A DNA stretch of 64,000 bases from Methanobacteriota archaeon (GTDB taxonomy: Archaea; Methanobacteriota; Methanobacteria; Methanobacteriales; Methanobacteriaceae): assembly GCA_963787255.1 (NCBI GenBank), contig CAWBCJ010000025.1, positions 32,001 through 96,000 on the forward strand, in the 5' to 3' direction. The translations under genes and the position numbers were made by a program. The notes beneath the pieces are model-generated. The model had not been told where the DNA came from and did not search any database. It saw only the letters and a program-made list of their open reading frames with translations. The first letter of the stretch is position 1. Each line of letters starts with the position of its first letter. Positions 10,574 to 18,265 of the stretch are shown in pieces.

Positions 10574-11600
10574 TTAATATCTTACTTTTCCTATGTGCCT
10601 TGTAGCGCCTGGATCTTCACCATTGAAGTGTGCAAGATAATAAATAAACCATTCAAGTGGAACTACCAGTGCAAATGGTGACATTAAATTATTCATATTC
10701 GAATAATCTTTTAAGTTGTAAATAATTGGTTTAACACCAATTTTTTCTCCAAATTCAATGGATTTATGAGTCATTTCATCTCCAGGATAATCGGCATTTA
10801 AAAACACTATAGGAACACCCTCTTCGGCTCTTTCAATTAAACCATGCCTGAACTCACCCAGAATACAAAGGACAGGCGTGTTTTAAGGCACCTTCCATGA
10901 ACATAGTCATAGCCAATTTGTAGGCAAGTCCATAGTTGGGCCCGCTGCCCATACAATAAAATATGTCATCATCCCGGCATTTTTCAGCTATTTCCCTGCC
11001 TTCATCTTCAGTTTTTTTAATTAAATCCTCAGTAATTGCCGGAAGTCTTTCAATATCACTTAGAACATCCATTTTAATTTTCCCAGCTTCGTTTTCATCT
11101 TCTAATCCTTGCATGCTGAATAAGATATTGTAAAGGCTCATTAGCTGGGTCATGTAGGTTTTGGTTCCGAGTATGGCGCTTTCAGTCCCGCCTCTTGTAA
11201 TTACGGTGTCATCAGCTTCTTGAATCATTGTGCATTGCCCTTCATTGGTTATTGCAACAGTATAAACGTCTTTTTCCTGGGCACGATTTAATGCAGCAAC
11301 AGTATCTGCTGTTTCACCGGATTGCGAAGTTAAAATGGCTCCGGCATTTTCATATCCCGTTTTTTTGTTGTAAAAAAACTCATAACCAGTATAAACTTCT
11401 ATATTTCTATCTGAAATAAAATCAAGGGCACTTTTAGCAGAGTAACATGTTGAAAGTGAACTGCCGCAGCCTAGAAGATAAATCTTATCAAATTCTTCAA
11501 ACTTCGCTGCAATTTCTTTCATATGCGACTTTTCTTCCTTTAAAGTATCTTTTAAAGCTTTCGGTTGCTGTAAGATTTCTTCATACATCTTATATTTCAT
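10574..11600 (-). CDS. Two-SIS-domain sugar-phosphate protein (GlmS-isomerase/FrlB deglycase-like), one frameshift near 10857
   Basis: [21 protein letters not shown]. Removing one G joins [27 protein letters not shown] with ORF 10574..10807. No glutaminase domain. Confidence 0.85.
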
Positions 11601-11652: not shown

Positions 11653-12687
11653 TTATTTTAGGATTTCAATTTTATCCATATAATCAGCTTTAGTTTGGTC
11701 TAAACTTCCTTTAATAACTCGTGTATTCGCTGTTGTTCCCATAAAGCCGGATTCAAACTTAAATCTAGGCACTAGATGCACATGCACATGTGATATACGC
11801 TGTCCAGCTACTTCACCTAGATTAATTCCAATATTTATACCATCAGGTTTTATAACTTCTTTTATAAGTTTAGTAGCACGTTGTACGGTGTTAAATAAAT
11901 TAGTAAGAGTTTCTGGATCTATATCTTCAAAAAGGGTGTAATGTTTCACTGGAACGACTAAAAGATGTCCCCGGGTAAAAGGATAAGCGTTTAGTATTAC
12001 CATGGTATCCCCATCATTGTATAAAACATTCTTTGAGATGTTTTCTTTGCCTTTTGCCATTTGGCAGAATATACATGGCATTTCAGGATTAATATAATCT
12101 TCTTTAAGAGATGGTGGAGTAAATATTACGTTATAACCGGGGATGTTGTTGTAAAGTTTTGAGATGCAAACTGCCATTTTTGCAACTTCAACTGCATTTG
12201 TACCAATTAAAGAAATTGAAGGCTCTTTTCCCCACGCTCCCATGTGGTATATAACATCTGGAACACCGTTAATCTTTTTAATTGCTGTTTCAACTCCCCA
12301 AGGTATAGTACCGCCTTCAACTTTTTGGATTAATTCTGGTTCGTCTTTTCGGTCATAAAAAGAGATTTTAAGGCCTAGTTTTTTGCAAATTTCTATTATT
12401 TGGTTGTTGTAAATGATATTCATGGCGCTTCTTTTGGTAGGGTCGTGTTTCATTATGCTTAGCACTAGACGGGCCATGTGTGATGATACGCCGTATTCAG
12501 GTTTCATAAAAGCTCGGGGTTTGCCGTGTATAGTTGTGATTCTTCCGGGAATCCCTGCTACATCTTTTACATCCCTGGCGTTTTCTTTTGCCATTACAAT
12601 GTTACTTCTTACTTCGGGAATAAATTCAGTAAATTCATCGCAGTTTTGTAGAATTTCAACGGCTTTTTCTAGATTCTCTATTTCCAT
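11653..12687 (-). CDS. Fusion of a ThiN-type thiamine-phosphate synthase domain and a HIT-family nucleotide hydrolase domain
   Basis: N-half: [36 protein letters not shown] (ThiN). C-half: [42 protein letters not shown] (HIT). One uninterrupted ORF. Confidence 0.88.
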
Positions 12688-13146: not shown

Positions 13147-13743
13147 ATGGTAGATGAAGTTGCAACTATAACTATAGATGGAATGAAATTATCAAAACAT
13201 ACCCCTGCAAATCCTGCACCTTTGGGATTTATAGCAGTAGGAATGACAATTGTTTTATATGGTTTTTATGCTGCGGGCTTTTATGGGCTAAACAGTATGA
13301 TATTTACTTTAGGATTAGTTTATGGAGGTATAACCCTATTAATTGTAAGCGCAATGGAATATAAAAATGGTAACACCTTTGGAACCGTCGCCTTTGGATT
13401 ATATGGGATATACTGGATTTCTGATATATTGATGTTAATATTTGCACAAATAGGTTGGGGAATAGCTCCAGACGTAAATTCAATCACAATATTTTATCTC
13501 ATGTGGGGACTATTCACAGTAGGAATATTTATAGGAACACTCAAATTAAGCCGAATTATACAATTCTTTTTCCTAACCCTCGCCATACTATTCTTCCTAT
13601 TAACCGCCGCTACATACACTGGAAACCCTACACTAACATTAATAGCAGGTTATGAAGCAATATTATGCGGTGCAAGCGGCATATACATAGGCCTAGCAGA
13701 GATACTAAACGACTTATACGAAAGTAAAGTTTTACCAGTCTAG
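13147..13743 (+). CDS. satP: Acetate uptake channel, GPR1/FUN34/YaaH (SatP) family
   Basis: ANPAPLG signature, GNTFG, 6 TM segments; RBS GGAGGT upstream. Confidence 0.9.
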   Translation: MVDEVATITIDGMKLSKHTPANPAPLGFIAVGMTIVLYGFYAAGFYGLNSMIFTLGLVYGGITLLIVSAMEYKNGNTFGTVAFGLYGIYWISDILMLIFAQIGWGIAPDVNSITIFYLMWGLFTVGIFIGTLKLSRIIQFFFLTLAILFFLLTAATYTGNPTLTLIAGYEAILCGASGIYIGLAEILNDLYESKVLPV

Positions 13744-14043: not shown

Positions 14044-17000
14044 GTGAATAAAATCAGAAAACGATTAATAATGCTAATTTCTTTCATATTTCTTTTAATT
14101 ATTTTCACTAATACTGTTTCTGCTGATCAATCAATTATCTATGTAAATGATTCAGGGGGAAACGATAGCTGGACTGGTGAAACAGCAATATGGGATGGAT
14201 CAACCCTACTTGGACCTAAAAAGTCTATTAAAAATGCCACAGGAACTGTAACTGATGGTGGGACAGTAAACATTGCAAACGGCCAATATACAGGAACAGA
14301 CAACACTAACATCACCATAGATAAAAATATGGCTATTATTGGGCAAAGCAGGGAAAATACCATAATAAATGGAACTAATAATACTGGAATATTCCTGATT
14401 CAAAATGGTGTAAATGTTTTAATCCAGAATTTAACACTTGCAAATGGAAATGCGGATTCCGGCGGTGCAATCCTAAATTCTGGAAATCTAACTGTTTTTG
14501 ACAGTAATTTCATAAATAACACTGCAACTGCTGGTGGTGCTATCCGAAGTATTGGGGGTACTTTGAATGTTAGTCAGTTGTAATTTAACAGATAACGTGG
14601 CATCAGATGGTGGTGCTATCAGTAGTTTAGGAAATTTAAACATTATTAATAGTATTTTCACCAAGAATGGTGCTAGTGAAATATTATATTACAATGATGC
14701 ATTAGGTGGTGCTATTTATTGTGCAGGAATCTAACCGTTCTTAACAGTACTTTCATAAATAACCGTGTTACCAATTGTGGTGGTGCAATTGTAAATGGTG
14801 GAAATTCCATCATTCTTAATAGTACTTTTATAAATACTTCAACTTTTAATAGTGGTGCTATTTGCAATTATGGTAGATTTAACTGTTGGAAATAGCACTT
14901 TCATTAATAACACTGCAGACAGTGGTGGTGCGATTTATAATGGGGGTATTTCAACTGATTTGGGCACTTTTAATAATGGGGGTACGTTAATAGTTGAGGC
15001 TTGTGATTTCATAAGTAGTACTTCAGGATTTAAAGGTGGTTATATTACCAATACAGGTACTTGTTTTATAACTAACAGTAATTTTAGTAATAGTACGGCA
15101 ACAAATGGTGGGGCTATTTGGAATTCTGGAGGTGATTTAACTATTACTGATGTTACTTTCACAAATAACACTGCTTGGGAGGGAGGAGGTGTTATTTTGA
15201 ATGATGGTATTTTGAGTGTCAATAACGTTATTTTCAATGGTAACACTGCACTTGGTGGTGGAGCAATTAGTAATGCTGGTAGTTGATTATTAGTGATAGT
15301 ATTTTCATTGATAACACTTCAGGAGCGGGTGCAATTTCCAGTAATTGCAGGGTGATTTAACTGTTTTTAACAGTAATTTCACAGGTAACACTGCAACTTC
15401 TGGTGGTGGCGCTATCTGCTAATAATGGAGGTACTTTGAATGTAATAATTGTAATTTCACAGATAACTCTGCAACCAATAAAGGGTGGTGCTATTTATAG
15501 TAGTAGTGATCCTCCAGATGTAGCCGTAAACATTATATTTGGCAGTACTTTCACTGGTAACACTGCAACTATGAATGGTGGTGCTATTTACAATGAGTGG
15601 TGAATATTGGGTATGGTACTGGTCAACTTGTCAGTGGAGATAGCTTATTAATTATGAATTTCTGTCAGATTGTAGGATAACAGTCCTGAAGATATATACA
15701 ATCACTAATAGAATTTCAGCAGATCTTAAATATAATTGGTGGGGTTCAAATAATGGTCCAGCATCTGGAAGAGTTACAGGTAGTGCAATTGTCACTCCTT
15801 GGCTTGTTTTAACTGTAACTGCAAATCCTAGCAGTATTGGTGTTAATGGGACATCAACTATAACAGCAGACTTAACACATGACCAGAATGGTGTTTATTA
15901 TGATCCTGCAGATGGTTATGTTCCCGATGGAATTCCAGTGAATTTTACCACAACTTTAGGAAATATAACTAATCCAGTATCTACAGTTAATGGGACCGCA
16001 CAATCAACTTTAAATGGCGGATCAGTGGATGGTGTTGCTAATGTTTCAGTTAAAGTTGACAGTCAAACTGTACAAAAATCAATTCCCGTACAAATAACTT
16101 TCACTATAACTCAAATAAAACAAGCAGCATCAACAGTAAGAAATCACATTGAAACTTATCACCAACTACCTAGTACCGTGGATATCAATGGAACTAATGT
16201 TACTATGTCCCAGTTCTTGGAATTGTTAACCAGTGCTTTACTGCAAATTAACAGTGGAAAAAATAATCCTATACTTTAAGAAATTTCACTGCCCCTACAA
16301 ATCCAAAGGACAATATTCGTGCAGGAAATATTCCTAAAGCAGAATACATGAAACTAGCAGGAGATATTAAAAACTACATGGACAGTAGCGGTAAAACACC
16401 AGACTACGCGTACGGAACAAGTCTGGGAACATGTCTAGGATTTGAAAACCTGGTTTACATGTACACTATGATCCTGGATTACTACAACACCAGCGGTAGG
16501 GTGGCTGATTGGGCAGGGATGGAGCCTTGGAGTGTTATAGTTTCTAAACCTTTTGTGGATCCCAATGCACCAAAATTTAGTGTGGAGCAGATTGAAGATG
16601 CAGCATCTACACTGAGGGCTTATGTTGAGTCTAGTCATAAGTTAATGAGTAAAGTCACAATTAATGGAACAGATGTAACAATGTCACAGTTCCTTGAATT
16701 ACTAACTACAGCATTACTTCAAATAAACAAGGGAAACAGTAATTTAATACCATTAAGAAACATTACAGCACCTACCAAACCATTAGAAAACATACATGCC
16801 GGCAATATTCCCCGAGCAGAATACATGAAACTAGCAAGTGAAATCAAAAACTACATGGACAGTAGCGGTAAAGCACCTGACTACGCTTACGGAACATGTC
16901 TGGGAAATTATATGTGTTTCCAAAACCTGGTTTACATGTACACTATGATCCTAGATTACCATAATTCAAGCGGGAAAATGGCTGACTGGGCAGGGATGGA

Positions 17001-18265
17001 ACCGTGGAGCGTTATAGTATCTAGACCTGTTTTGGATCCAAATGCACCTAAATTCAGTATAGATCAGATTAAAGCTGCTGCATCAATTGTAAGATTATCT
17101 ATAGAAACAAATGGTAAACTGCCGGATTATGTGGAAATAGGATCCAGTCAAGTTACAATGCCCCAATTCCTGGAATTATTAACCAGTGCTTTACTACAAA
17201 TTAACAGTGGAAAAGATAGTCCTATACCTTTAATGAATTTCACTGCCCCAACATGCCCAAAGGATAATATTCGTGCAGGAAATATCCTTAAAGCAGAGTA
17301 TTTAAAGATTGCAAGTGAAATCAAAAACTACATGGACAATACAGGTAAAACGCCAGACTACGCTTATGGGACAAGCTTGGGAACATGTCTTGGATTTGAG
17401 AACCTGGTTTATATGTACACTATGATTTTGGATTACTATAATAGTAGTGGTAAGGTGGCTGATTGGGCAGAAATGAAACCGTGGGGAGTGCGTGGTTACT
17501 GGATGTTGGCATCAAGTGCGCATAGCTTCAATCCATGGACTTTAAAAAATTCGGGAATTACAGATATATTCCTTCTAACTAGATCTGTAACTGGAAACGT
17601 ATACCTTAATGAATTACAATACGTAATAGATGTTTGTAAAGATCCAGGAATACGTGTTCACGCGTGGATTGTATGTTTTAAGGATAATAATGCATTTGTT
17701 AACCCTATTACGCCCGGATACAAAGAAAGTTTACTTAATCTAATTAGTAACATTGCAAATAATTATGCTGTAAATGGAATTCACTTAGATTATGTAAGAT
17801 ACTCTGGTGTTGGGAATAATGCGGCTTCAGCACAGCTGGGAGGTACTTCTGCAGCAGTTGCTACCATAACTGGTTTTGTACACAGTGTTTATGATTTAGT
17901 GAAGGGAATCAATACAAAAAATAGCAGTTTCAGCAGCAGTGATGCCTGAAGGAGCAAACAATCCAGGTCTTTATGGGCAGGATTACAGTCAACTTGCAGA
18001 CTATGTTGACTTCTTTTTACCTATGACCTATGAAGGAAACTACAATGCAAATAATGCATGGATAACAAGCGCTACACAGTATATAGTTGATCATGCCAAA
18101 GGTAAACCGGTATATGCTGGTTTAACAACCTATTGGTCTGACAGTAACACAAGAGCATTAACTCAATCTGAATTAAATGAAGATGCAAACTCAGCTAGAC
18201 TTGGTGGTGCATCAGGTTATGTATTATTCAGATTTGGCTATGGAAGTTCCGCAATACCATGTTAA
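14044..18265 (+). pseudogene. Large secreted adhesin-like protein (signal peptide, GGAI beta-helix repeats, Ig-like segment, three pseudomurein-binding units, C-terminal GH-like TIM barrel), broken by many frameshifts
   Basis: Fragments 14044-14583, 14852-15286, 15403-15603, 15938-16279, 16348-17949 and 17939-18265 are colinear. Motifs: F..N.A..GGAI repeats, NWWGSN, MSQFLELL/FENLVYMY repeats, HAWIVCF, GIHLDYVRY, YGQDY. May be intact in vivo. Confidence 0.8.

Follow-up and report, generated by a model that had tools for sequence, protein, structure and literature searches.

Closest described systems

Organisms that use Thi4, among them archaea, fungi, and plants, must turn ADP-thiazole (ADT) into thiazole phosphate. 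Here we describe a gene on the minus strand of a 64,000-nucleotide stretch of DNA (the window) from an archaeon of the Methanobacteriaceae (assembly GCA_963787255.1, contig CAWBCJ010000025.1), in which a ThiN domain, a predicted thiamine-phosphate synthase, is joined in one reading frame to a HIT domain. The gene encodes a genuine, conserved, and uncharacterized ThiN-HIT protein with two domains, and we propose, tentatively, that its HIT half may serve the cleavage of ADT. The accessible portions of two papers give the ADT-cleaving enzyme as unidentified (PMC4215014, 2014) and the step as one that "remains to be characterized" (PMC9544542, 2022), both invoking Nudix enzymes, and what is available of a third paper (PMC13325395, 2026) is silent on the step. 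A literature search that lay mostly outside the subscription journals found no paper on a ThiN-HIT fusion or on an identified ADT-cleaving enzyme.

The described protein closest to the N-terminal half is ThiDN (M. jannaschii MJ0236, PDB 2php; P. furiosus, PDB 2pb9), which has the same ThiN catalytic domain and with which the principle of fusing ThiN to an enzyme supplying one of its substrates would be shared. The partner of ThiN in ThiDN is an N-terminal ThiD, whereas here it is a C-terminal HIT domain and ThiD is encoded by a separate gene. ThiN-family domains also occur in ThiR, the archaeal regulators in which ThiN follows a helix-turn-helix (HTH) domain; the protein described here has no HTH and retains the residues R49 and H70.

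For the C-terminal half, the best matches are the mycobacterial diadenosine tetraphosphate (Ap4A) phosphorylases (Rv2613c, PDB 3ano/3wo5; the M. avium enzyme, PDB 6af2), the likeness including a C-terminal extension after the histidine triad. These are, however, stand-alone proteins of ~30% identity, and position 296 is variable in the fused clade. Fhit and NitFhit (PDB 1fit, 1ems) have HVHVH followed by PR and cleave adenosine-5'-pyrophosphoryl-X compounds, and NitFhit is an earlier example of a HIT domain joined to an enzyme of metabolism, although identity is 22-24%, the partner is a different one, and the organisms belong to another kingdom. Nudix ADP-sugar pyrophosphatases, which have an unrelated fold, would give the same products from ADT (AMP and thiazole phosphate).

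Domain layout of the gene

The gene is one uninterrupted open reading frame (ORF) of 344 codons plus stop, with an ATG start and a single, terminal stop. Its parts are given below in window positions.

11653..12687, minus strand: whole ThiN-HIT gene (ORF list and translation; full-length single-frame matches in 28 of 151 genomes of the order)
12172..12675, minus strand: ThiN (thiamine-phosphate synthase) domain, residues 5-172 (PF10120, solved ThiN domains, fold match)
12082..12141, minus strand: inter-domain linker, residues 183-202 (predicted local distance difference test, pLDDT, below 50; variable length)
11656..12081, minus strand: HIT module with N-terminal CxxC and C-terminal extension, residues 203-344 (PF01230, solved HIT relatives)
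11758..12045, minus strand: HIT Pfam core, residues 215-310 (PF01230)
11776..11790, minus strand: histidine triad HVHVH, residues 300-304 (alignment of 56 fused homologues)
12064..12075, minus strand: CxxC motif, residues 205-208 (alignment of 56 fused homologues)

Both domains are essentially complete: ThiN scores 211.5 bits against a Pfam cut-off of 25 and covers profile positions 1-163 of 165, and HIT scores 78.9 bits against a cut-off of 21.5 and covers positions 2-97 of 98. DcpS_C is the only further Pfam domain in the 344-residue protein; the scan found no HTH and no other DNA-binding domain, and hence nothing of the N-terminal DNA-binding domain by which ThiR is defined. A preliminary description of the window had reported a complete ThiN domain and a HIT domain with intact HVHVH in a single ORF, with their junction near 12130. 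The architecture is borne out, and that position falls inside the linker. An AlphaFold2 model built from 56 sequences (mean pLDDT 83; predicted TM score, pTM, 0.56) has two confident domains, with pLDDT mostly above 85 in ThiN and below 50 at residues 183-202 and 312-326.

Reality and spread of the fusion

A search of 5.8 billion clustered proteins gave 220 relatives, and 117 of the best 120 of these, from several sources and at 48-92% identity, carry both PF10120 and PF01230. Where the matches listed bear a name, it is mostly Methanobacterium. Databases thus already contain the architecture but label it generically: NCBI has it as "thiamine-phosphate synthase family protein," and the Joint Genome Institute (JGI) under a compound name ending in diadenosine tetraphosphate hydrolase. 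The statement in the preliminary description that the fusion was not known as a described architecture agrees, then, with the literature searched, which holds no discussion of it, but not with the databases.

Within the order, 151 sampled Methanobacteriales genomes, the source genome included, were surveyed with a threshold of E <= 0.001 for the HIT part, and matches were found in 80, distributed as follows.

Fused, one full-length match: 24 genomes of 151
Fused, longer linker (two matches in one open frame): 4 genomes of 151
ThiN and HIT adjacent, overlapping but in different frames (G136): 1 genome of 151
ThiN only: 49 genomes of 151
Weak, distant HIT match only: 2 genomes of 151

By genus, the fused form is found as follows.

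Genus g1: 8 of 10, the source genome among them
Genus g2: 4 of 4
Genus g7: 2 of 2
Genus g21: 1 of 1
Genus g9: 4 of 11, plus the single split case
Genus g10: 9 of 12

No fusion was found in genera g3, g4, g12, g15, g16, g19, g26, and g27 of the same survey. One and the same single-frame architecture recurs in 28 of the 151 genomes, as it does in 117 of the best 120 relatives, which excludes chance or mis-assembly, and an assembly or gene-calling artefact is ruled out on the same counts. Two separate, unlinked genes for ThiN and HIT, the arrangement that the preliminary description had named as evidence of an artefact, occur in none of the 151 genomes. In the sole split case (G136; L031 3036-4075), a ThiN of 185 residues and a HIT of 173 lie in different frames with a 40-base overlap, nested in a clade of otherwise fused genes; this split is a recent frameshift, either genuine or a sequencing error. 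No copy of the HIT paralogue free of ThiN was found across the order (151 genomes at E <= 0.001, and 5 ThiN-only genomes at E <= 1), so that there it exists only attached or adjacent to ThiN.

A check of ThiN architecture in 301 genomes of the class found only frames of stand-alone or of fusion size, apart from a few truncated ones and two exceptions: in G009 (family f3; L043, G009:C20:137000-141500) ThiN lies in a 380-residue open frame in which no HIT was found, and G282 has a ThiN frame of 305 residues. A locus search with the HIT domain alone returned three loci, all of them fusions from uncultured Methanobacteriaceae. As far as searched, the fusion is limited to a subclade of the Methanobacteriaceae. 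The 322-residue HIT protein P0124, in which no Pfam match was found in the first 190 residues, was set aside as a g9-type HIT with a probably mis-called N terminus.

The ThiN half and the thiamine pathway

The ThiN domain is very probably the thiamine-phosphate synthase of this organism. The source genome (2.47 Mb in 29 contigs, 95% complete) has a single ThiN match, which is the fusion gene, and ThiE (PF02581) was not found in it; this sole ThiN, the missing ThiE, the pathway genes present, and the retention of R49 and H70 together argue for a working enzyme. Those pathway genes comprise two full-length copies of Thi4 (309 and 245 bits), two of ThiC, and one ThiD. Among solved structures, the domain matches ThiN of 2pb9 (E 1e-39) and of 2php (E 3e-31) by sequence, and a Foldseek comparison of the AlphaFold2 model gives TM scores, normalized by target, of 0.86 for 2pb9 and 0.89-0.90 for 2php, at a root mean square deviation of 1.4-2.1. 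Compared with the stand-alone ThiN of 23 ThiN-only sister genomes, its identity is 52-80%. All 56 aligned fused homologues have R49 and H70, and the alignments with 2pb9 and 2php show both residues conserved; they are probably the catalytic pair, with the same 21-residue spacing as Arg320 and His341, the pair reported to be essential in Pyrobaculum ThiDN.

The second Thi4 copy, that of 245 bits (L003, G000:C29:711246-714926), lies between ThiI and MOSC-domain genes with NifU nearby, in a cluster concerned with the handling of sulfur. Thi4 comes in two types in the order, scoring ~305-344 and ~245-255 bits, and some genomes have the second type only; a link between the fusion and the type of Thi4 paralogue was considered and dropped, there being no consistent correlation. 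Besides the fusion, the source genome holds three divergent stand-alone HIT genes, beside which no thiamine genes were found.

The HIT half

HIT enzymes attack the α-phosphate of adenosine-5'-pyrophosphoryl-X compounds via an AMP-histidine intermediate and release phospho-X. The second half of the fusion is, by strong implication of its motifs and relatives, a catalytically intact enzyme of this kind, of the Fhit/Ap4A-phosphorylase type. Among the 56 aligned fused homologues, H300 and H302 are invariant and H304 is present in 55, and C205, C208, and H249 are each found in all 56. The term "zinc-type," which the preliminary description applied to this domain, is a motif-level label, based on C205, C208, H249, and H300, all of them invariant.

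The best solved relatives by sequence are 6af2 and 3wo5/3ano (E ~1e-18 to 1e-19), followed by various HIT proteins and Fhit, and the alignment with 6af2 takes in the C-terminal extension as far as residue 333. When the AlphaFold2 model is compared by Foldseek, the relatives rank in the same way and many HIT structures match the fold; the top entries are titled as M. tuberculosis and M. avium diadenosine tetraphosphate phosphorylases. This proximity, by sequence and fold, to the Ap4A phosphorylases and Fhit places the domain in the branch that cleaves adenosine-5'-pyrophosphoryl-X bonds.

The likeness to the Ap4A phosphorylase family is one of resemblance and not of membership, because the score is far below the equivalog cut-off: the best NCBIfam model, the actinobacterial ATP adenylyltransferase NF052622, gives 85.5 bits against a cut-off of 290, and the split HIT of G136 gives 106.3 bits against the same value. 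Scores for purine nucleoside phosphoramidases of the Hint type also lie below their cut-offs (NF045834, 57.8 against 130; NF007965, 28.6 against 206). At position 296, immediately ahead of the triad, 22 of the 56 fused proteins have Q, 21 have A, and 12 have S. The choice between hydrolase and phosphorylase is not one that can be read from the sequence of the domain.

Evolutionary history of the HIT module

A tree of the ThiN domain was built from 45 genomes, 22 with linked HIT and 23 without, picked from the 80 with matches to cover every ThiN genus, the other 35 being omitted. All 22 HIT-linked genes fall into one clade of 37 rows (support 99/96), together with 15 ThiN-only genes; HIT is absent from the lineages outside it (g3, g12, g15, g19, g26, and g27). 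The genus clades of the HIT-domain tree mirror those of the ThiN tree, and the HIT domains of the fusions are 52-81% identical to that of the query, compared with 38-46% for the nearest HIT proteins unlinked to ThiN. The simplest reading of these trees would be a single fusion at the base of a subclade of the Methanobacteriaceae, followed by vertical descent and by loss on at least 5-9 occasions; the two trees agree genus by genus, and the fusion is both genuine and vertically inherited. The fusion persists across six genus-level groups, and the catalytic residues are invariant over ~50% sequence divergence.

A proposed role in the cleavage of ADP-thiazole

The function that we favor, as a possibility held tentatively on the basis of domain content and relatives, is that the HIT half serves the cleavage of ADT in a two-domain enzyme that couples this step to ThiN. 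Thi4 would make ADT, which the tethered HIT domain would cleave near the ThiN active site: attack on the α-phosphate would leave AMP on the middle histidine of the triad, H302, and release phospho-thiazole, giving AMP (or ADP, were phosphate the acceptor) and carboxy-thiazole phosphate. The ThiN domain would then join hydroxymethylpyrimidine diphosphate (HMP-PP) to thiazole phosphate. Such chemistry is plausible because ADT is one of the adenosine-5'-pyrophosphoryl-X compounds, the substrates of the branch to which the HIT domain stands closest. The proposal also agrees with the distribution of Thi4, which, at a presence threshold of E <= 1e-40, is found full-length in every one of the 29 genomes whose ThiN and HIT are either fused or split but adjacent; genomes with the fusion and without thi4, which the preliminary description had held would speak against a role for HIT in this pathway, were not seen.

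Several results weigh against this proposal. One is the distribution of the HIT part. Of the 49 ThiN-only genomes of the order, 48 have Thi4 (none was found in G137), and the HIT part was matched in none of the 49 at E <= 0.001; even at E <= 1 there was no real HIT match in five ThiN-only genomes, two of which belong to the same genus. The HIT domain is therefore not an obligatory ADT hydrolase, since close relatives run from Thi4 to ThiN without it, and the original suggestion that it is the missing ADT hydrolase in general does not survive. In these relatives, something other than this HIT must suffice for the ADT step. The ThiN tree tells the same story in time, requiring at least nine changes in the state of HIT, five of them forced by strongly supported branches, and at the G100 locus a frameshifted, stop-ridden remnant of the HIT N terminus lies directly after the ThiN stop; no HIT remnant was found at the other ThiN-only loci inspected. 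Given these state changes and this decayed relic, HIT is repeatedly dispensable, while ThiN and Thi4 stayed.

Nudix enzymes are candidates for a substitute: all 151 sampled genomes of the order carry Nudix genes, with three matches in the source genome. An earlier thought, that Nudix might be absent where the fusion occurs and present in ThiN-only genomes, was rejected on this count; within g9 only, fused genomes have fewer Nudix matches (1 compared with 2-3), whereas in g1 and g10 this pattern is missing or runs the other way. Generic host enzymes can evidently process ADT, since THI4 genes complement an E. coli thiG mutant, according to the part of the report that is accessible (PMC8454699). 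Neither a HIT nor a Nudix gene was found beside either Thi4 copy of the source genome.

The family-level motifs of the fused domain are the same as those of its free relatives, and there is accordingly no sign of a new specificity. The argument from fusion, in the manner of the Rosetta stone, is weakened because the subfamily is a promiscuous partner. Of 10,410 matches to the HIT domain (E <= 0.001, among 1.84 billion representatives; only 9 at E <= 1e-30), 42 of the best 150 were scanned for domains, namely all 36 that are longer than 225 residues and six top short ones. Their partners include RNase HII, CYTH, a ClpX zinc finger, NUDIX, class II aldolase, a DNA-ligase N-terminal piece, a Phd antitoxin, and second HIT domains, and ThiN is the sole thiamine enzyme among them.

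Lastly, the channeling of the product of ADT cleavage to ThiN, which the preliminary description had inferred, finds no support, because the linker is disordered and variable in length (24-62 residues between residues 180 and 205 among the 56 homologues), and the model shows no confident packing of one domain on the other, as its pTM of 0.56 and disordered linker indicate. In this model the linker can be regarded as a flexible tether, with proximity possible and no evidence of a fixed channel; the benefit of the tether to ADT cleavage would thus be one of proximity.

What can be retained of ADT cleavage is a role for the HIT module as a lineage-specific accessory and not as an obligatory step. 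Constraint would have preserved the module in many lineages; others would have dropped it, the work there presumably falling to generic ADP-X pyrophosphatases. Even if true, this would be an add-on in part of the Methanobacteriaceae and not a general solution, generic enzymes evidently sufficing elsewhere. The value of the fusion lies in the joining of the next pathway enzyme to a domain with fitting bond-cleaving chemistry, which renders the ADT question testable with one recombinant protein.

Alternative explanations

The most serious rival, which follows ADT cleavage closely in likelihood, is that the HIT half is a general Ap3A (diadenosine triphosphate)/Ap4A or nucleotide-adenylate housekeeping enzyme. 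It would have been fused when a stop codon was lost in a compact operon, and the fusion would have lasted because it does no harm and not through any link between the two activities. Ap4A phosphorylases are indeed the best matches of the domain by family and by structure, and its closest free relatives are named at source as ATP adenylyltransferase and Ap4A hydrolase. The readiness of the subfamily to join unrelated partners, and its repeated loss without loss of ThiN or Thi4, fit a housekeeping enzyme well, and the three further HIT genes and three Nudix matches of the source genome suggest possible redundancy. A metagenome search with P0129 added one distant free-relative locus (n=1, 32% identity to the query), which lies among nucleotide-metabolism genes (NT5C, cytidylyltransferase-like) and has no thiamine gene. 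A harmless accident sits less easily, however, with a one-frame fusion kept across six genus-level groups with its catalytic residues conserved (H304 in 55 of 56, the others in all 56), with the HIT of G136 still adjacent and overlapping after its frame was broken, or with a paralogue of which no free copy was found in the order. The pattern of loss fits an accessory ADT module and an unrelated, redundant housekeeping enzyme alike, without separating them.

It is also conceivable, although improbable, that the HIT domain acts on another adenylated thiamine compound, such as adenosine thiamine diphosphate or triphosphate (AThDP, AThTP), or on the ADP-ribose or ADP-ribulose side products of Thi4, in salvage or damage control. 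These substrates are of the same adenosine-5'-pyrophosphoryl-X class and would follow the same logic of fusion, and the dispensability of the module fits a clean-up role. The preliminary description, too, had raised the recycling of adenylated thiamine species.

A more elaborate version of ADT cleavage, to which we would give a low probability, has the HIT domain as a dedicated ADT enzyme that, in the manner of the Ap4A phosphorylases to which it is closest among solved proteins, works by phosphorolysis or pyrophosphorolysis and not by hydrolysis. The AMP of ADT would be passed to phosphate, or to the pyrophosphate released by the tethered ThiN, regenerating ADP or ATP, and carboxy-thiazole phosphate would go to ThiN. 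If this were true, the missing step of the Thi4 pathway would have its first assigned enzyme, in an energy-saving version and in an energy-limited methanogen.

ThiN domains have been reused as sensors in ThiR regulators, and a regulatory relationship between the two halves could be envisaged, either with HIT as a nucleotide-sensing or non-catalytic appendage of ThiN or with ThiN as a ThiR-like ligand sensor for HIT. Such an arrangement is very improbable in view of the conserved catalytic histidines, the lack of an HTH by Pfam, and the standing of this ThiN as the sole candidate thiamine-phosphate synthase in the genome. An artefact of assembly or gene calling, at which the frame breaks in a SIS gene and an adhesin-like gene nearby in the same assembly might hint, deserves practically no credence in the face of the recurrence of the single frame described above.

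Genomic neighborhood

The HIT module is placed between ThiN and a gene for a SIS protein; across the order, genes for Hsp20 and a NOG1-type GTPase lie beyond the SIS gene.

10574..11600, minus strand: GlmS-isomerase-like SIS gene, frameshifted, downstream partner of ThiN-HIT (7 relatives' loci)

In the window, an extra G in a GGG run near 10853-10855 breaks the SIS gene into one ORF of 248 residues and another of 77, and the break is either that of a pseudogene or a homopolymer error of assembly. An intact SIS gene encoding 334-341 residues follows ThiN or ThiN-HIT in all seven relatives' loci inspected (L031-L037), with a start/stop overlap with its neighbor in three of them (for example, L031 4072-4075), and the pair is conserved in three of the order's families. 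In its likeness to the isomerase half of GlmS, to FrlB, and to GlmD, the SIS protein stays below every NCBIfam equivalog cut-off.

On the plus strand at 14044-17949 are five successive adhesin-like ORFs, rich in Asn/Thr/Gly repeats and in frames 1, 2, 1, 2, and 1, which look like one long gene with several frameshifts. Together with the break in the SIS gene, they hint either at gene decay or at an assembly with indel errors. Upstream of ThiN-HIT and divergent from it, across a 459-base spacer, the plus strand encodes at 13147-13743 a membrane protein of the GPR1/FUN34/YaaH family, of the acetate/succinate channel type.

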